64,000 nt of DNA. It comes from Oceanispirochaeta sp. (GTDB lineage Bacteria > Spirochaetota > Spirochaetia > DSM-2461). This document shows, in pieces, positions 49,413 to 57,623 of this stretch. Each line of letters opens with the position of its first letter. Within the stretch, counting starts at the first letter, position 1. Position numbers and translations under genes: made by a program. The DNA is taken from the NCBI GenBank assembly GCA_963663385.2, contig CAXXXD010000002.1, positions 448,001 through 512,000 of the forward strand, given 5' to 3'. The notes under the pieces are model-generated. The model worked only from the letters and a program-made list of their open reading frames with translations, was not told the DNA's origin and did not search any database.

Positions 49413-52379
49413 ATGTCCTCATCAATATCCTGCCCAGATACATTCTCACTCATTTCTACAGATGACCTGGATGAATACCGCGGCAAAGGTTATCTTTTTG
49501 AACATATAAAAACAGGTTGTCAGATCTATCATGTCCATAATGACGATGAGGAGAATCTGTTCTCCTTCAATTTCCGCACGCCCCCCGCAGACAGTACGGG
49601 GGTCGCTCATATCCTGGAGCATTCCGTGCTCTGCGGATCCCGGAATTTCCCTGTGAAGGATCCTTTTCTATCCATGATGAAGGGGAGTGTCAATACCTTT
49701 CTGAATGCCATGACCTATCCGGATAAAACCCTCTATCCTTCTGCCAGTGTTCTGGAGAAGGACTATTTCAATCTGATGCATGTATACGGAGACGCAGTTT
49801 TCTTTCCTCTGTTAAAGAAGGAGGTTTTCCGTCAGGAGGGACATCGCCTGGAACGGGATGAGAAGGGTAAACTCCGCCGGGTGGGTATTGTCTATAATGA
49901 GATGAAGGGAAACTACTCCTCTCAGGAGGGGATTGCTTCGGAGTGGTCCATCCGCTCCCTTTTTCCCGATAATCCTTATGGTGTGGATTCCGGTGGGGAT
50001 CCCGATTTTATCCCGGCCCTGACCTATGAACAGTTTCTTGAGTTTCATAAGACCTACTATCATCCCTCCAACTGCCGGATTTTCCTTTATGGGAATGTGA
50101 GCCCCCGGAAAAATCTTGAATTTCTGGATGACAGATTCCTGAAGGAGTTTGAAAAACGGGATGTGGATTCCCGGGTTCCCCTTCAGGAAAACTGGACAGC
50201 TCCCCGGGTGTTCGAAACAACCTGGCCGTCCGGCGAGGAGGAAGATGAGGATGGGAAATCTTCCCATTTGCTGAATTGGAAAACTGTTGGACCTGAGGAT
50301 CCCGTCCGCAGTTTGAGTTATTCCATTATGACCGAAATGCTTATGGGAAACAGTGGAGCTCCCCTTCAGAAGATTCTCCATGAATCCGATCTGGGGGATG
50401 ATATCTCTCCGGTCAGCGGGATGGATTTCGATCTGAATGAAGCGGTTTTCTCCATCGGTTTGCGGGGCTCCGATCCGGATAAGAAAGAGGCTTTCAGAGA
50501 GCTGATTTTCTCATCTCTGAAGGAAATTGCAGAAAAAGGGTTTCCGGAAGATCTGAAAGAGAGCTGCATGCGCCTTGTGGAATTCCGGGCCAGAGAGATC
50601 AAGGGGGGGGGACCTTTCGGCCTCCGTCTGCTGAAGAAAGCCCTGAAGGGCTGGAATTATGATCTTCCTCCTGTTCAGACCCTGCGCTTTGATTCTGTCA
50701 TGAAGGAAGTCCGGCGCCGGGCGGAAGAGCCCGGATATTTCGAATCCCTGCTGAAAGAGGGGATTCTGAATAATCCCCACTACTCCCTGGTTACAGTAAA
50801 ACCGGATCCTGAAAGTCGCAATAAACAGGAAGAGGCCCTCCGGAAGGAAATGGCTGCCATTGAGGCATCCTTATCAGAAGAGGATGAGGCTAATCTCAAG
50901 CAGGAAAATGCTGCTCTTAAAACTTTTCAGGAGAAGGTTGATACCCCGGAAGAGCGGCAGACAATCCCCACCCTGAGCAGGGATGATATACCCCGTACCA
51001 TTCAGAAGATCCCCTATCATTTAAGTGATGAGAAGGGAATTAAAGTTCTGAGACAGGGGATTTTCACCAATGGTATCCTCTATTCTGATCTGGCTTTTGA
51101 TCTTTCCGGAGTGGATGAGGATCTCTACCCGTATCTGCCACTTTTCTGCCGCGCCCTGTCCGGAACCGGTCTGCCCGGTATCCCCTATGATGTGGTTACC
51201 CGGGATTTAGCTCTTAAAACCGGCGGTTTCGGGGCGTCTCTGGAAGCGTCCTGTTCCCTCTCCGGTTCCTCCCCCGATCGTTACCTTTATGTACGCCTCA
51301 AAATGCTGGAAGAACAGAGTGCCGAAGCTCTGGAGCTGGCGGGGAAACTGCTTCTGCAGGCGGATTTTGATAATACGGCCCGTCTGGATCAGATTATGAC
51401 GGAGATGCGGAACGATATGAAAGCATCCCTGATCCCCGGAGGGCACTCCTATGTCTCCCTGAGAACAAACCGGGCTCTGTCAAAAGCCTCGGCTCTGGAG
51501 GATGACTGGTTCGGGATCTCCCAGCTTCAGTTCCTGAATGAACTGACGGCAAAAAAAGATAAGCCATTCCTCTTGAAACTTTCATCCCTTATGAAGCAGA
51601 TCCGGAAGGAAGTCTTCAACGCTGAAGGGCTGGTTATAAGCCTGACAATGGATGAATCGGTTATGAACCGCCATAGCCCTGAAATTCTGAACTACTGGCA
51701 GGAGATTTTACCTGTTTCCCCGGAAAAAGGAGAAGGTCTGAATCAGGGGATGCCCCGGATAGACCGGTCTCTATCAGAAGCGGATAATCAGGGAGAAGGT
51801 CTGGCTATCCCGGCTTTGATCGGATTTGTGGGAGCCTCCCTGCGGGGAACCCGTCTGGGGACTGCGGAACACTCGGCCCAGATCCTTCTGAGCCATATGC
51901 TGAAAACAGGTCCTCTCTGGGAGAAAATAAGGATGAAGGGCGGTGCTTACGGGGCATTTTCCTCTCTCTCCGGATTGGAGGAAACCTTTTCGTTTGCCAC
52001 TTACCGGGATCCCCGGATTGAGGATTCTCTGGATGCCTTCAGAGAAAGCCTCGGAGAGTATGTGAATTTTTCAAATCCGGAGGAGCTGGAAAAATCCCTG
52101 ATCAGTGTGATCGGCAAGGAGCTGCGGCCTCTCTCCCCCTCCGAGAAAGGTATGATCTCTTTAAAGCGGTACCTCTACGGGATCAGTGACGAACTGCGTC
52201 AGAAAAAGCGGGATCAGCTTATGAATCTGACTGAATCACAGATTTCTGAAGCGGCGGGGAGCCTGCTCCGGCTCTGGGAGAAGGCTGTCGTCGTTGTTAT
52301 GGCTCACCCCGATCAGCTCGACCGGGCTTCAAAGAGATGGCCCGGTTTAAAAGACCGGAGGATTGACCTTTCGAAGTAG
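49413..52379 (+). CDS. M16C peptidase (presequence protease / insulinase family)
   Basis: 'HILEHSVLCGS' HxxEH, 'NAMTYPDKT.YP', 'GIVYNEMKG', 'IRMKGGAYG'. Confidence 0.95.
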   Translation: MSSSISCPDTFSLISTDDLDEYRGKGYLFEHIKTGCQIYHVHNDDEENLFSFNFRTPPADSTGVAHILEHSVLCGSRNFPVKDPFLSMMKGSVNTFLNAMTYPDKTLYPSASVLEKDYFNLMHVYGDAVFFPLLKKEVFRQEGHRLERDEKGKLRRVGIVYNEMKGNYSSQEGIASEWSIRSLFPDNPYGVDSGGDPDFIPALTYEQFLEFHKTYYHPSNCRIFLYGNVSPRKNLEFLDDRFLKEFEKRDVDSRVPLQENWTAPRVFETTWPSGEEEDEDGKSSHLLNWKTVGPEDPVRSLSYSIMTEMLMGNSGAPLQKILHESDLGDDISPVSGMDFDLNEAVFSIGLRGSDPDKKEAFRELIFSSLKEIAEKGFPEDLKESCMRLVEFRAREIKGGGPFGLRLLKKALKGWNYDLPPVQTLRFDSVMKEVRRRAEEPGYFESLLKEGILNNPHYSLVTVKPDPESRNKQEEALRKEMAAIEASLSEEDEANLKQENAALKTFQEKVDTPEERQTIPTLSRDDIPRTIQKIPYHLSDEKGIKVLRQGIFTNGILYSDLAFDLSGVDEDLYPYLPLFCRALSGTGLPGIPYDVVTRDLALKTGGFGASLEASCSLSGSSPDRYLYVRLKMLEEQSAEALELAGKLLLQADFDNTARLDQIMTEMRNDMKASLIPGGHSYVSLRTNRALSKASALEDDWFGISQLQFLNELTAKKDKPFLLKLSSLMKQIRKEVFNAEGLVISLTMDESVMNRHSPEILNYWQEILPVSPEKGEGLNQGMPRIDRSLSEADNQGEGLAIPALIGFVGASLRGTRLGTAEHSAQILLSHMLKTGPLWEKIRMKGGAYGAFSSLSGLEETFSFATYRDPRIEDSLDAFRESLGEYVNFSNPEELEKSLISVIGKELRPLSPSEKGMISLKRYLYGISDELRQKKRDQLMNLTESQISEAAGSLLRLWEKAVVVVMAHPDQLDRASKRWPGLKDRRIDLSK

Positions 52380-53604
52380 TTCTGTTCCGTGTAATCAGGG
52401 GGAGCCCTGCCAGCTGCAGAAGCAGCAGAGGCAGGAAGAGGAATACGGTTCTTTCATTCCCCTGGTGAAACCCGGGCAGCAGGTTTATCAGGATCATCCC
52501 GATAAACAGAAGAGCTTGAATCTGCCAGAATCGAACCAGTATTTTTATCCGGCGGGGATTGTTCCTTTTGGGAAAGAGAAAAATCAGCACCAGATAAAAT
52601 GGATGGATAACCATCAGGTTCAGGTTTTCACTGGCCACCTGGTGGTTGGTGAACAGACTGATGAAGAAGGTCAGCCCTCCTGTTACGGAGAAAACTGTCA
52701 GGAACAGGGTCAGGAGTATTCGGCAGGTGTTTCCGGGGCCGTTTTTCCGTGACAGGGCTCCCGCCTGCAGAAGCAGAAGACATATACCGCTTATCAGGCC
52801 GTAAACCAGAGCCATTTTTATATTGGAAGGGGCGGTATCGGGTACGGCTTCCCGTCCTTCGGCTTTAACCCTGTATTCCGTATTCCGCACCAGAGCTTCC
52901 GTTCCGTTCTCTGTCTCTATGGTCAGTTTGCCAACCTGAATCATCAGTTCATCCGGCAGGAACATGGTATCCCAAACCGTTATATCCCTGTCTATTGTCC
53001 GCCCCTGAAGAAAGGAGAGAAGCCAGTCGGCCCACCAGCTGTGGCTGCTGTACCGGCGGAAACTCTCCCGGAAACTGGTTCCGGCCGACATCATGGTTGC
53101 TTCTTTCAGCTGCCCTCCTGTTGCTGTATCGATAAGATCCCTGATGCGGGTGGAACAGTTATCCAGGTAATGATGGTAGAGGTAGGTATTATTGCCGGGA
53201 GAAACCTTCCATTCCAGATACTGAGCCATATCTGCAATGGCTCTCTGGGACAGGTTGAGGGCCTGAATGGTTACATCCCTGTTTTCGTTTGCTATGTAAT
53301 TGAGATAGGCACGGGCTGAGACTCCCACTGAGGAGTATATAAGTCTTCCCATGGCAAAATTTCTGTAAAAATGGTCTGACTTGAAAGAAAAATTCCCGAA
53401 GTCATAGAACCGTGCTTTGCTGTTTGCCGTATATTCCAGAATCAAACCCGTATGTCCAAACCATATATAAAGTGGATCCCCCGGGCCAACGGTCACAAGG
53501 TAGCAATTCCAGGTCCCCTCCGGGGAATCTGCATTGGACTGTGTCGAAAGGGGCATTATAAGAATGAAAAGAATAACGGGGATAAGGATTTTTTTTTGAT
53601 ACAA
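52297..53604 (-). CDS. DUF4105 / Lnb-like membrane protein
   Basis: 'TVGPGDPLY.WFGH', 'YDFGNF', 'Y.YHHYLDNCSTRIRD'; C-terminal TM helices; TTG start after GGAGG. Confidence 0.82.
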   Translation of the reverse strand: MYQKKILIPVILFILIMPLSTQSNADSPEGTWNCYLVTVGPGDPLYIWFGHTGLILEYTANSKARFYDFGNFSFKSDHFYRNFAMGRLIYSSVGVSARAYLNYIANENRDVTIQALNLSQRAIADMAQYLEWKVSPGNNTYLYHHYLDNCSTRIRDLIDTATGGQLKEATMMSAGTSFRESFRRYSSHSWWADWLLSFLQGRTIDRDITVWDTMFLPDELMIQVGKLTIETENGTEALVRNTEYRVKAEGREAVPDTAPSNIKMALVYGLISGICLLLLQAGALSRKNGPGNTCRILLTLFLTVFSVTGGLTFFISLFTNHQVASENLNLMVIHPFYLVLIFLFPKRNNPRRIKILVRFWQIQALLFIGMILINLLPGFHQGNERTVFLFLPLLLLQLAGLPLITRNRTTSKGQSSGLLNRAISLKPGRADRGEP

Positions 53605-53753
53605 AAAATACCTCCATGTAGTAAATAGCCCAAAATACGGGATAATATTAATCGATGACGGTTAATTTTTCTACCCTATTGATTTTTTCTATTTATTTCT
53701 TATAAAGAATTGTGATAGAATGGGCCTCAACAAATAGGCATAAGGAGCAATTT

Positions 53754-53939
53754 ATGGCTGAAAAAGAAACCCTGGTAGTATCCTCCAAGGTTAAAAACTA
53801 CATCAAGACAACTGGCGATCTGAAATGTTCTGCCAAAGTTATTGATGTTCTGTCAGACAAAATCCGTGAGATGTGTGACGCCGCAATCGAAAATGCAAAA
53901 AATGATAAAAGAAAAACAGTACAGGAAAAAGATTTCTAA
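53754..53939 (+). CDS. Bacterial histone-fold protein (Bd0055/Leptospira-type singlet histone)
   Basis: MAEKETLVVSSKVKNYIK...SAKVIDVLSDKIREMCDAAIENAKNDKRKTVQEKDF; RKTVxxxD histone L2 motif; TAAGGAG RBS; 61 aa. Confidence 0.85.
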   Translation: MAEKETLVVSSKVKNYIKTTGDLKCSAKVIDVLSDKIREMCDAAIENAKNDKRKTVQEKDF

Positions 53940-53970
53940 TCCAGATTATTAAATCTTTTTTTATTGTACA

Positions 53971-54011
53971 AAAAACCGCTTTGCCGTACCGGGCAGAGCG
54001 GTTTTTTTTTT
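53971..54011 (+). terminator. Strong intrinsic terminator after the histone gene
   Basis: AAAAACCGCTTTGCC-GTACCG-GGCAGAGCGGTTTTTTTTTT. Confidence 0.8.
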
Positions 54012-54153
54012 CCCGGCCGGGGTGAGCGGGGCCGATTAAAGAAAAGGACAGTTCGAGCGAAGCCGAGAACAGGTATGACCTTTCTTTTGTTGACTGGACA
54101 AATGGAAACACCCGCCGGATAATTATTTAAATAATATAAGAGGGGGCATAATA

Positions 54154-56291
54154 ATGAGTCAGAAAATCAGCGCATCCGTCAGAAGAAAGGATGCAATAGA
54201 TAAAGCCGCCGGAACGATGGAGTACCTGGCGGATCAATTCCCCGTTTCTCCTCTTCACGGGCGTTTTTTTTATTCAACTGTTGCCAGGGGAAAGATAAAA
54301 TCCGTGGATCTGCCGGATCTGCCCGAGGGATACCGTATTTTCGGTGCCGAAGATATACCCGGAAAAAACGGTATACAGATGATCCAGGATGACTGGCCTG
54401 TTTTTGCGGATAAAGAGGTTCGGTATATCGGACAGGTGATTTTTCTGATTGTGGGGCCGGATAAAGCCGAAATCCTGAAAATCCGGGATGCCATACATGT
54501 GGAATACGAAGAGGAGCCACCCTGTTATACCCTGGAGGATTCTGAAGCTCAGCTGGGCGGAACCCAGCATGGGGATGATAATGTTTTTACCCGCTATGAA
54601 ATAAATCACGGCGATGCTGAAAGTATGTTCGCCAAAGCGGACCGTATCCTTGAAAACGATTACTTTACGGGTTATCAGGAGCACGTCTACCTTGAACCTC
54701 AGAGCCTTTTTGCCCACTGGGAGGATGATACGCTTATAGTTCATGCCTCCGCTCAATGCCCTTTCTATATCAGGCACAGTATGACCGGTGCCCTGGGAAT
54801 GGAAGAAGATAAAATCCGGATTATTCAGACCCCTACAGGTGGTGCCTTCGGAGGAAAAGAGCATTTCCCCGATGTCCTGGCCTGTCCCCTTGGGGTCGCC
54901 GTTTATCACCTGAAACAGCCTGTTTCCCTGATCCTCGACAGGAAAGAGGACCTGGCGTATTCCATCAAACGTCATCCCAGTGCCGTCCATATCCGGACAG
55001 CACTGGATAAGGACGGAAAGATCCTTGCAATGGATATTGATCAGCGCCTGGATGGCGGAGCTTATGAAAGCTGTTCCATGGTTGTACTGCAGCGGGCTGT
55101 TTTTCACGCTGCAATGTTTACAATTTCCCCCATGTTCATGTACTGGGAAGGGCTTTCTGTACCAATAAAGTCCCCTCAGATGCGTTCCGGGGATTCGGGG
55201 CTCCTCAGGCTATTTTTGCCATGGAAAGCCATATGAACTTTCTGGCTTTCGAGCTGGGGATGGACCCCATGGACATCAGGGAGCCATACCTGCTGGCCCA
55301 GGGAGACAGTACTATCACAGACGGCCGGATTCATGAAACGGTTATCCTCCCCGAGCTGATTGAGCGTGTCAGGAAAATCTCCGGTTATCAGGAAAAAATG
55401 ACTGCCTATAAAACAATACCCTGGAAAGGGATAGGCTTGTCCCTGTTTATGCATGGATGCGGTTTTACCGGCAGCGGGGAGCAGGATATTATTAAGGCCC
55501 GTGTCAAGGTTTTGAAAACAGCGGACGACAGGATTGAGATTTCCGCCTCCAATGTTGAAATGGGGCAGGGACTGACCACTACCTTTTGTAAAATCGCTTC
55601 GGAAACTCTCGGGATTCCCCTTGATCAGGTTCAGTATATGATACCCGATACGGGAGCTGTCCCGGATTCGGGTCCCACAGTTGCTTCCCGTTCCATTACC
55701 ATTGTCGGATACCTTATTGAAAAGGCCTGTGAAAAACTGAAAAAACAGTGGATGCCGGGAAAAGAACAGACTGTCTTTCATGACTATGTCCCTCCTGAAA
55801 ATGCCGTTCCCTGGGATAATGACGCCCTTACCGGGGATGCTTATCCTGCCTACAGCTGGGGGGCAAATGTTGTTGAGCTTGAAGTGGATCCCATCACATT
55901 TGAAATTGAAACAAAGGGAATCTGGGGCGCTTACGATGTTGGGGTTCCTATTGATCGCCGGATTGTGGAAGGACAGATACAGGGTGGTATGATTCAGGCA
56001 CTCGGTTACAGTAATCTGGAAAAGCTGGAGGTTAAGAACGGCCGCTTCCGCCAGGCTACCCTGGCGGATTATATGATTCCCACCAGTAAGGATTTTCCTT
56101 CCATGAAGTGTGAGATTCTGGATAATCCCTACGACGGCGGTCCTTTCGGCGCCAAAGGGGTAGGGGAAATGGTATTTAACGGCGGCGCTCCCGCTTTTAC
56201 CGCAGCAGTCTGCCAGGCCGTGGATGCGGAAATTGATGAAATCCCGGTTCTTCCGGAAACACTGATGGAGTTGAAAGATGAAGGAAAATAA
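54154..56291 (+). pseudogene. Xanthine dehydrogenase-family molybdopterin-binding subunit split by a frameshift near 55100-55112
   Basis: ORF1 has 'QEHVYLEP' and 'GGAFGGK'; after 'RAVFH' the conserved 'NVYNFP...TNKVPSDAFRGFGAPQAIFAMES' continues in the frame of ORF 55221..56291. Confidence 0.85.
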
Positions 56292-56757
56292 TATTGAGTT
56301 TCGATTGAATGGAAAAAATACGGAATACGATGGGTCTCCCCTGAAGCGTCTTCTGGATGTGCTGAGGGAGGATTATGAGCTGACAGGTCCTAAAGAGGGC
56401 TGCGGTGAAGGGGAATGCGGAGCCTGCAGTGTCATCATGGACGGTAAAATGGTCAACAGCTGTATGGTCCCCATGGGTAGTGTTATGGGGAGAGATATTG
56501 TAACCATCGAAGCATTCAGTCAAACAGACCGGGGAAAGTGCATTGTTGAGGCTTTTGCCGATGCAGGCGCCGTTCAGTGCGGTTTCTGTACGCCCGGTAT
56601 GGTCATCGCCAGTGAAATGATCCTTCAAAAGAATGCCGATCCCGGTGTGGCTGAGATCCGTGAGGGACTGTCGGGCAATCTCTGCCGCTGTACCGGTTAC
56701 GATCTGATAGTGGAAGCTGTCAAACTGGCAGCGGAAAGGGGGAAGGGGTTATGGTAA
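56278..56757 (+). CDS. Xanthine dehydrogenase-family [2Fe-2S] subunit
   Basis: 'KEGCGEGECGAC', 'QCGFCTPG', 'GNLCRCTGY'. Confidence 0.95.
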   Translation: MKENNIEFRLNGKNTEYDGSPLKRLLDVLREDYELTGPKEGCGEGECGACSVIMDGKMVNSCMVPMGSVMGRDIVTIEAFSQTDRGKCIVEAFADAGAVQCGFCTPGMVIASEMILQKNADPGVAEIREGLSGNLCRCTGYDLIVEAVKLAAERGKGLW

Positions 56758-57623
56758 GCTATTTTTATCCTGATGATCTGAAGGAAGCCCTTGAAATCCG
56801 GAAGGAGAATTCTGTTCTTCCCCTGGCGGGCGGAACGGATCTTATGGTCCGGTATGAAAACTGGAGCAGCCTGCCTCCCGACTTTCCCGGGGATGTCCTT
56901 GGAATTTCACACCTGAAGGAGTTGAAGTATATCCGCGAAGATCAGGATTTTCTGCTTATCGGCGCCGGGATGACTCTGAACGATATCCTTGAGTATAAGG
57001 GGATCCCCGATCTGCTCAGGAAAGGAATCGGAGAAATCGCCGCCCCTGCCGTTCGGAACCTGGCCACCCTTGCGGGTAATATCGCCAACTCATCTCCTGC
57101 CGCGGACTCTCTGCCTCCCCTTATTGTAATGGATGCAGTTCTCAACCTTGTCTCTGTCAAAGGAGAAAGAACAGTCCCGGTCAGGGATTTTATTACGGGG
57201 CCCGGCAAGAACAGCCTGCGGGATGATGAGCTGATCGAGTCCATCCGTATTCCCCTGGATTTTATTAAAGAAGAAAGCAGCGGGAAGGGATTTTACCGCA
57301 AAGTGGGAACCCGGAAAGCCAATGCGCTTTCCAAACTCTCCTACTGCGGCTGGGCTTCAATCGAAGGTTATATGATAAAGGATATCAGGATGGCCGCCGG
57401 AGCTGTCAGTCCCGTCGTTGTCCGCCTGCCAGAGGAAGAGGATAAATTGAAAGGGTGTAAACTGAGGGAGCTGTCCCGGGAGTGGAGCAAAGTCAGAGGC
57501 GCCTATGAACAGAAGATCACTCCGATCGATGATCAGAGATCTACCGCTTCCTACAGGAAGCGTACAGCCCTTAAGCTCTTCGATTATATGATCTCGGAAC
57601 TATCCGCCTTATCCGTGTCGTAG
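56751..57623 (+). CDS. Xanthine dehydrogenase-family FAD-binding subunit
   Basis: 'AGGTDL', 'RNLATLAGNIANSSPAAD', 'PIDDQRST..YR'. Confidence 0.93.
   Translation: MVSYFYPDDLKEALEIRKENSVLPLAGGTDLMVRYENWSSLPPDFPGDVLGISHLKELKYIREDQDFLLIGAGMTLNDILEYKGIPDLLRKGIGEIAAPAVRNLATLAGNIANSSPAADSLPPLIVMDAVLNLVSVKGERTVPVRDFITGPGKNSLRDDELIESIRIPLDFIKEESSGKGFYRKVGTRKANALSKLSYCGWASIEGYMIKDIRMAAGAVSPVVVRLPEEEDKLKGCKLRELSREWSKVRGAYEQKITPIDDQRSTASYRKRTALKLFDYMISELSALSVS

Follow-up and report, generated by a model that had tools for sequence, protein, structure and literature searches.

The window, by which we mean the whole stretch of 64,000 nucleotides of Oceanispirochaeta sp. DNA that was analyzed, carries on its plus strand a short gene that a first-pass annotation had read as a stand-alone bacterial histone (for an overview see Table 1). 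Positions 53754-53936 (+) translate without an internal stop into 61 residues (P0001) and are followed by a TAA stop codon at 53937-53939. The product contains 11 Lys and 2 Arg residues as well as two Cys residues (C25 and C41), has a pI of 8.6 and a net charge of +2, and includes the strings LVVSSKVKNYIK, SAKVIDVLS and AKNDKRKTVQEKDF that the annotation had quoted. An AAGGAG ribosome-binding site ends 6 nt ahead of the ATG, and with it the earlier description of a Lys-rich frame of 61 aa with its own RBS holds.

The ORF listing opens the histone frame at GTG 53712, which would yield 75 aa. As M1 is invariant across 48 aligned homologues, the stop-to-stop frame comprises merely 61-62 codons in several relatives, and GTG 53712 falls within a -10 region that is conserved in the genus comparison, we assign the start codon to ATG 53754 and not to GTG 53712, in agreement with the suspicion voiced earlier that the ORF track over-extends the start. 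The gene is under very strong purifying selection: dN/dS values against nine genus orthologues (Nei-Gojobori) ranged from 0.007 to 0.039 at dS 0.67-1.6, which argues against a chance ORF, and the histone is 95-98% identical within the genus, where the neighboring Lnb protein reaches 47-68% (best tblastn segments). A 90-aa antisense ORF (53839-54111, minus strand) runs across the terminator and the 3' half of the histone gene; it is most likely spurious, since the selection pattern fits the plus-strand frame.

Across the genus, the 20 bases preceding the ATG show little or no variation, and their flanks vary. A scan with a sigma-70 pattern returned no promoter upstream of the histone gene, having missed the extended -10 element because the -35 region is too weak for the scan rule. 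Conservation within the genus suggests a promoter of the extended -10 type and points to a role of the box TCTATTTA further upstream.

Table 1. Features of the histone locus, in window positions.
Feature	Position	Strand	Basis
Upstream box TCTATTTA, overlapping the weak -35 region of the putative promoter	53688..53695	+	invariant or at least 90% conserved in 10 genus sequences, flanks vary
Putative extended -10 element (TG 53713-14, TAGAAT 53716-21)	53713..53721	+	TG-n-TAGAAT invariant in 10/10 genus sequences
Invariant 5' leader with Shine-Dalgarno AAGGAG (53742-53747)	53737..53753	+	genus conservation of GGCATAAGGAGC.ATTT
HBb-type histone CDS, 61 aa (P0001)	53754..53939 (including stop)	+	translation, Pfam, PDB, fold, dN/dS
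Intrinsic terminator (A6, GC-rich stem 53975-53985 / 53992-54002, T10)	53970..54011	+	fold and genus comparison

At the 3' end, the strong terminator claimed in the first-pass annotation was recovered by folding, although a terminator pattern scan had listed none at the histone gene. The segment 53965-54012 folds into a hairpin with 16 pairs (-25.7 kcal/mol, z -5.88), a stability that none of 200 shuffles reached, followed by the run of ten T residues, and both hairpin and T-run are kept at 10/10 genus loci with differing stem sequences. A search of Rfam returned no known RNA family; sub-threshold, terminator-like matches occurred over the hairpin only, the best at 30.6 bits against a gathering threshold of 59. 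The histone gene would thus be transcribed as a single-gene unit from an extended -10 promoter. Metatranscriptome contigs from one RNA library (word share 0.08) covered parts of the neighboring genes within 50500-57500 and left the histone gene uncovered, where such contigs give no level and missing cover proves nothing. Contigs of a related strain (run X7) have 30 additional bases after position 54063, where a spacer separates the histone terminator from the xanthine-dehydrogenase genes.

The genes on either side have no relation to the histone and encode a PreP-like M16C peptidase (+), a divergently oriented membrane protein of the Lnb family (-) and, downstream, a cluster of the xanthine-dehydrogenase family. 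The order PreP - Lnb - histone occurs at 9/9 genus loci and at 16 of 80 public loci, and at none of the 11 loci from other Spirochaetota classes. The molybdopterin-binding subunit of the xanthine-dehydrogenase family (54154-56291) falls in the window into two ORFs that overlap but differ in frame, 54154-55236 (MoCoBD_1) and 55221-56291 (MoCoBD_2). Compared to locus L029, in which both MoCoBD parts lie in frame, the window is one base short in a CAAATG/CAATG stretch near 55112; the frame break could be due to a pseudogene or to an assembly error.

Fold and family of P0001

P0001 matched the Pfam family PF00808 (CBFD_NFYB_HMF) with 22.4 bits at a cut-off of 21.4 and the NCBIfam model archaea_histone with 26.6 bits, under the cut-off of 50. 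In a phmmer search against the PDB, HBb/Bd0055 (8fvx, 8cmp) was the best match (E 2.1e-11, 46.7 bits, residues 5-60), followed by HLp of Leptospira perolatii (9qt0; E 3.1e-9, 40 bits). A profile of 48 homologues, chosen across 69-98% identity from the 120 matches listed of 145, matched HBb at 2.3e-19 (72.8 bits) and HLp at 1.9e-14 (57.1 bits), the archaeal face-to-face histone HTkC at 7e-10, and Asgard and HMf histones at 4e-5 to 0.07 (HMfB at 0.029). The AlphaFold2 model built on the 48-row alignment, with a mean pLDDT of 80 and no residue reaching 90, consists of the helices alpha1 (residues 2-21), alpha2 (27-50) and alpha3 (58-60), connected by the loops L1 (22-26) and L2 (51-57). Foldseek searches of the PDB with this model returned HBb for all of the top five matches (TM 0.72-0.75, rmsd 1.9-2.3 A, 51-52% identity), followed by HLp (TM 0.71, 41% identity), HTkC and eukaryotic H2B. 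Hence, the comparison with histone folds and Bd0055 that had been proposed as a check gave a predicted histone fold with HBb as its nearest neighbor, and the claim of a stand-alone singlet histone is consistent with PDB phmmer, profile and fold, all of which rank HBb/Bd0055 first.

In the alpha3-truncated histones described by Schwab 2024 (PMC11390915), alpha3 is cut to 3-4 residues and alpha2 is 4-5 residues shorter than in nucleosomal histones. The modeled P0001 conforms to this definition with an alpha2 of 24 and an alpha3 of 3 residues, and the RxTxxxxD motif of the L2 loop, which forms the R-D clamp, is present (R53, T55, D60). R53, K54, T55 and D60 as well as K12 and K14 are invariant in the 48 homologues. 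The window gene is therefore confirmed to encode a bacterial histone of the alpha3-truncated kind. The pseudodimeric DUF1931 histone fold was also considered and rejected, as PF09123 scored 14.9 bits at a cut-off of 21.8 and P0001 comprises a single fold of 61 aa, not a doublet.

Distribution and codon usage

With the histone profile (E <=0.001), matches were obtained in all 24 other genomes of the window's family, f1, and, in a larger sample of the class, in 37/37 genomes of this family. These distribution figures refer to samples in which some genomes are incomplete. The class sample as a whole gave matches in 89 of 401 genomes and 33 of 155 genera, and among the genomes searched the families f12 (0/38), f5 (0/37), f69 (0/17), f83 (0/12) and f63 (0/11) had none. 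In the phylum sample, 95/401 genomes were matched, 72 of them, at weaker scores, from family f20 (72 of its 75 genomes), which includes Leptospira, as shown by an f20 sequence with just two differences from the HLp chain. The named homologues among the matches listed belong to Spirochaetaceae, Spirochaetales, Thiospirochaeta and Entomospira; f20 shares only the phylum with the window, and the host is, as had been supposed, a spirochaete outside Leptospira.

In a library of 1.84 billion proteins, the 48-row profile matched 1,160 representatives at E <=0.001 and 456 at <=1e-10. Many of the best-scoring representatives are tandem HBb-type doublets of 126-149 aa with two matched stretches, and in others the domain lies at the C-terminus of longer proteins (P0121, P0122, P0125, P0129, P0140). 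Two loci from MAGs titled Spirochaetaceae (L100, L106) encode a Myxococcota-type histone with Thr in L1 that groups within the Myxococcota clade of the tree, and one of the isolate names contains 'MYXO'; mislabeled bins or gene transfer are both possible. One genome of the same class (G557; C27, C60) has three matches to the histone profile, of which two adjacent partial ones on one contig resemble a broken or frameshifted second copy.

The genome of the window (5.31 Mb in 4 contigs, 98% complete) holds this one histone-fold gene only, next to four matches over the cut-off for PF00216 (HU/IHF). Two of these four HU/IHF-family matches are arranged head to tail within 550 bases on the minus strand (G000:C4:608920-609469). 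Relative to 27 ribosomal-protein and EF-Tu reference genes of the same genome, which themselves range from 0.59 to 0.79, the codon adaptation index (CAI) of the histone gene is 0.796, and it exceeds those of all 3,964 non-overlapping ORFs of at least 150 aa (best 0.784). The value also beats 99.8% of 20,000 length-matched windows of 61 codons, a length at which the index is noisy; the four HU/IHF genes reach 0.59-0.68. As the index lies above that of every one of the long ORFs, the histone is probably very highly expressed, with codon bias as the proxy. Persistence throughout the family, purifying selection and the most ribosomal-protein-like codon usage are what would be expected of a major nucleoid protein.

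Dimer type and DNA binding

The closest characterized relative, HBb, is an essential homodimer that binds genome-wide irrespective of sequence and introduces a DNA bend of about 84 degrees over 36 bp (Hu 2024, PMC11317129). The same work names N22, R57, S9, T53, T8, S24, K10, K12, K52 and K16 as the top DNA-contact residues and R51-D58 as the clamp. According to the phmmer alignment, HBb residue n corresponds to window residue n+2, by which seven of the ten contact residues are identical in P0001 (S11, K12, K14, K18, S26, K54, T55), three are altered (T8 to S10, R57 to K59 and N22 to K24), and the clamp is R53-D60. As these HBb contact residues are kept, backbone contacts by the start of alpha1 and the L1-L2 loops as well as bending of the DNA would be expected for P0001. 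The L1 contacts may differ from those of HBb, since the top contact N22 is replaced by Lys and the adjacent Thr by Cys.

The four-copy ESMFold2 predictions scored an ipSAE of 0.84 in three runs, compared with 0.01 for the best of three controls. Of the calibration proteins, 20 of the 30 solved as pairs and 1 of the 23 solved as single chains had attained this ipSAE mark; predictions with four copies lie outside the calibration. Contact agreement between the runs was at least 85%, with a partner pLDDT of at least 86. The predicted contacts are those of a handshake, with alpha1 residues 16-21 on alpha2' 41-45 and L1 23-26 on L2' 55-56. The model displays a likeness to the histone dimer rather than binding as such, and it may simply reproduce HBb dimers, which are among the solved structures.

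Taken together, we consider it likely that P0001 is a histone of the HBb category that is transcribed alone, forms a handshake homodimer without assembling into a tetramer, bends DNA without sequence preference and is very highly expressed, where DNA binding, bending and abundance are predicted by analogy to HBb. Transcription would run over the histone gene alone, from the extended -10 promoter to the hairpin terminator. Two copies of the product would then associate in a handshake, with the alpha2 helices crossing antiparallel, alpha1 packing on alpha2' and L1 pairing with L2'. The dimer would grip the DNA backbone by the start of alpha1 (S10-S11-K12, K14 and K18), irrespective of sequence, with further backbone contacts from the L1 and L2 loops (K24, S26, K54, T55, K59) and the R53-D60 clamp. 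As reported for HBb, this would bend the DNA, and neither a tetramer nor a wrapped particle would be formed. In the cell, the histone would probably rank among the top-expressed proteins, alongside the four proteins of the HU/IHF type. Homology, conservation and codon bias lend good support to the predicted role of an abundant, DNA-bending nucleoid protein, as far as the analogy to HBb carries; 'histone-based chromatin' in this spirochaete, as put forward in the first-pass annotation, would be the corresponding extrapolation, in which codon bias speaks for abundance.

How a dimer of this kind arranges on DNA has been described in two ways for Bd0055 itself. Crystals of Bd0055 with DNA were interpreted as end-on binding that forms a DNA sheath (Hocher 2023, PMC10627809), and as P0001 belongs to the same family and shares its DNA-facing residues, it might likewise coat DNA in a nucleohistone filament or sheath, which would straighten the DNA rather than bend it. 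However, bending by Bd0055 was found in tethered-particle motion, ligase circularization and topology assays as well as in molecular dynamics (Hu 2024, PMC11317129), and we regard the end-on arrangement as unlikely for P0001.

A second alternative is suggested by HLp, which is the second-best PDB match in sequence and is also close in structure, ends in D-F like P0001, and comes from a host of the same phylum. HLp is a stable torus tetramer that wraps about 60 bp, with contacts by R49, S52, N53, R55, T61 and F63, so that the shared terminal Phe corresponds to a residue of the tetramer contact (PMC12701072). The tetramer residues of the face-to-face logo, R48 and N52, are equivalent to R49 and N53 of HLp (PMC11390915, PMC12701072). 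In the phmmer alignment, these two HLp residues align with N47 and D51 of P0001, and the pair is missing throughout the genus and the family. Among 107 histone domains cut from the loci and aligned, from which the duplicate window locus L001 was left out, the f20 sequences had R in 4/4 and N in 4/4, the nine genus orthologues had N (eight) or K (one) in the first column and D in all nine in the second, and the 63 sequences from spirochaete MAGs contained a single R and no N. In addition, L1 of P0001 is one residue longer than that of f20.

In a maximum likelihood tree of 100 distinct rows, a starred branch splits the f20 clade (support 99/84) from a clade of 94 rows (99/85) that comprises the window, other Spirochaetia sequences, Bdellovibrionales and Myxococcota; the tree is based on 62 columns, leaves many forks unsettled and has a root for drawing only. 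The four-copy ESMFold2 predictions also contain confident contacts for a single pair of copies only, where one partner was scored and unlisted contacts are uncertain, so that a tetramer would still be compatible with them.

The histones of the 'bacterial dimer' category are reported to cluster with HBb in CLANS sequence clustering and to be devoid of the tetramer Arg and Asn (Schwab 2024, PMC11390915). The alpha1 lysines of the corresponding logo (11, 13, 17) are present in P0001, K12 and K14 being invariant and K18 at least 90% conserved. As the Arg/Asn pair is absent, we place P0001 by its residues in the HBb 'bacterial dimer' category and not with the face-to-face type of Leptospira, and wrapping by an HLp-like torus is very improbable. 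The earlier assignment of the pattern to the singlet histones of Bdellovibrio and Leptospira thus stands for the HBb type, but had lumped two subfamilies, from the second of which the window gene is set apart by the missing tetramer pair.

Equally improbable is a role as a specific regulator or as part of a different complex, as the name 'NFYB/HAP3 family transcription factor subunit' of some source entries among the homologues, the match to PF00808 and the statement that histone-fold proteins need not all be global organizers (Schwab 2024, PMC11390915) might suggest, since the only histone-fold gene of the genome leaves no NF-YC-like partner, P0001 carries no further domain and tops the genome in codon adaptation, and the residues for non-specific backbone contacts of HBb are kept. 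Identity with an NF-YB/HAP3 subunit itself was rejected, given the lone histone-fold gene, E values of 0.24-0.29 for NF-YB chains (profile) and a truncated alpha3 as opposed to a full-length alpha3 plus alphaC.

Of the two cysteines, for which the first-pass annotation had suggested a possible redox sensitivity, C41 is common to HBb and is Cys in 97 of the 100 HBb-like sequences besides the window (9/9, 60/63, 11/11, 16/16 and 1/1 by group), where f20 has Ile or Leu. In the ESMFold2 model this residue packs on alpha1' of the partner (V13, Y16, I17, T20), by which C41 is predicted to be a buried core residue. C25, within the L1 loop, is the only clade-specific cysteine by alignment: the column is Cys in 9/9 genus and 58/63 spirochaete MAG sequences, and in the 34 sequences from other phyla, other Spirochaetota classes and f20 it is Thr (31), Ser (1) or Val (2). 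On the tree, the Cys25 label needs at least three changes, at least two of them forced by well-supported branches, with few columns and no reliable root behind this count. An exchange of Thr for Cys is nearly isosteric.

C25 sits between the positions of the HBb contact residues N22 and S24 and aligns with T27 of HLp, for which a contact with the DNA backbone is seen in both HLp-DNA crystals (PMC12701072). C25 could act as a redox switch on the nucleoid, where oxidation or S-thiolation would add bulk or charge at the DNA interface and, under oxidative stress, loosen or re-shape binding, but we consider this quite unlikely. If true, an abundant histone would be a direct sensor that couples the redox state to global DNA compaction in mostly oxygen-sensitive spirochaetes. 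A disulfide within the dimer was rejected, as the contact list, which places the crossing of alpha2 near residues 36-37 and C41 on alpha1', suggests too great a distance both between the two C41 and between C25 and C41'.

Comparison with known systems

Bacterial histones have been accepted as real chromatin proteins only in 2023-2025, and HLp was presented as only the second bacterial histone to be characterized, after HBb (PMC12701072, December 2025). The class Spirochaetia has been named among the holders of bacterial dimer histones (Schwab 2024, PMC11390915), and the supplement of Hocher 2023 (Table S1 and alignment file) lists spirochaete singlets, including a protein of 61 aa that is identical to P0001 at 59 of 61 positions. 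As the family and near-identical orthologues are already published, the window gene is a correct call and no discovery. A full-text literature search found no experimental study of a Spirochaetia histone. In a 2025 preprint on spirochaete genomics, Leptospira are given as the sole spirochaetes that encode histones (PMC12236494), a statement contradicted by the present data and the two surveys. Free-living members of the class Spirochaetia carry an HBb-type histone, so that both architectures, this dimer type and the tetramer type of Leptospira, occur within one phylum. The division of labor between histone and HU/IHF in one cell could conveniently be studied in cultured relatives.

The prototype of the 'bacterial dimer' group, HBb/Bd0055 of Bdellovibrio bacteriovorus (8FVX, 8FW7, 8CMP, 9EZZ, 9F0E), is the best match by sequence, profile and structure, at 51-52% identity. 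Both proteins have a short alpha2, an alpha3 of 3 residues, S-K at the start of alpha1, the alpha1 lysines, RKT in L2 and the R-D clamp; they also share the Cys in mid-alpha2, the lack of tetramer residues and a single-domain, stand-alone gene. P0001 differs in L1, where K24 and C25 replace N22 and T23 of HBb, in the Lys at the position of R57, and in stopping right after D-F, whereas HBb chains comprise 64-66 residues. The host is a spirochaete of the free-living type and no predator, and P0001 is known from sequence and models, unlike HBb.

The closest listed protein, OQY32390.1 of 'Spirochaetaceae bacterium 4572_59' (Hocher 2023, Table S1 and alignment file), is the 59/61-identical one and differs by I45V and K49T. 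Its locus (L029) has PreP, Lnb and xanthine-dehydrogenase genes as neighbors, as in the window. The protein is a table entry that was never studied singly.

HLp of L. perolatii and LA_2458 of L. interrogans (9QT0-9QT2) have the same alpha3-truncated fold at 41% identity and come from the same phylum, and the Leptospira face-to-face histone is reported as an abundant nucleoid protein in Leptospira (PMC10627809). Where HLp has R49, S52 and N53, P0001 has N47, N50 and D51. In HLp, moreover, the N-terminus is extended by a tail, L1 is shorter, and Ile or Leu takes the position of C41.

With the archaeal HMfA/HMfB, P0001 has the histone fold and RxTxxxxD in L2-alpha3 in common, as well as putative DNA contacts via L1-L2 and alpha1. 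However, HMfB is only weakly matched (profile E 0.029), has an alpha3 of 10 residues and a longer alpha2, and polymerizes into hypernucleosomes, while P0001 ends one residue beyond the clamp Asp. The likely function, by analogy, is that of a small, basic and dimeric DNA bender and resembles that of HU/IHF (PF00216), and HBb was found to compact DNA similarly to HU (Hu 2024, PMC11317129). The fold of HU/IHF is unrelated to that of P0001, and the four HU/IHF genes of the genome display a lower codon adaptation than the histone gene.
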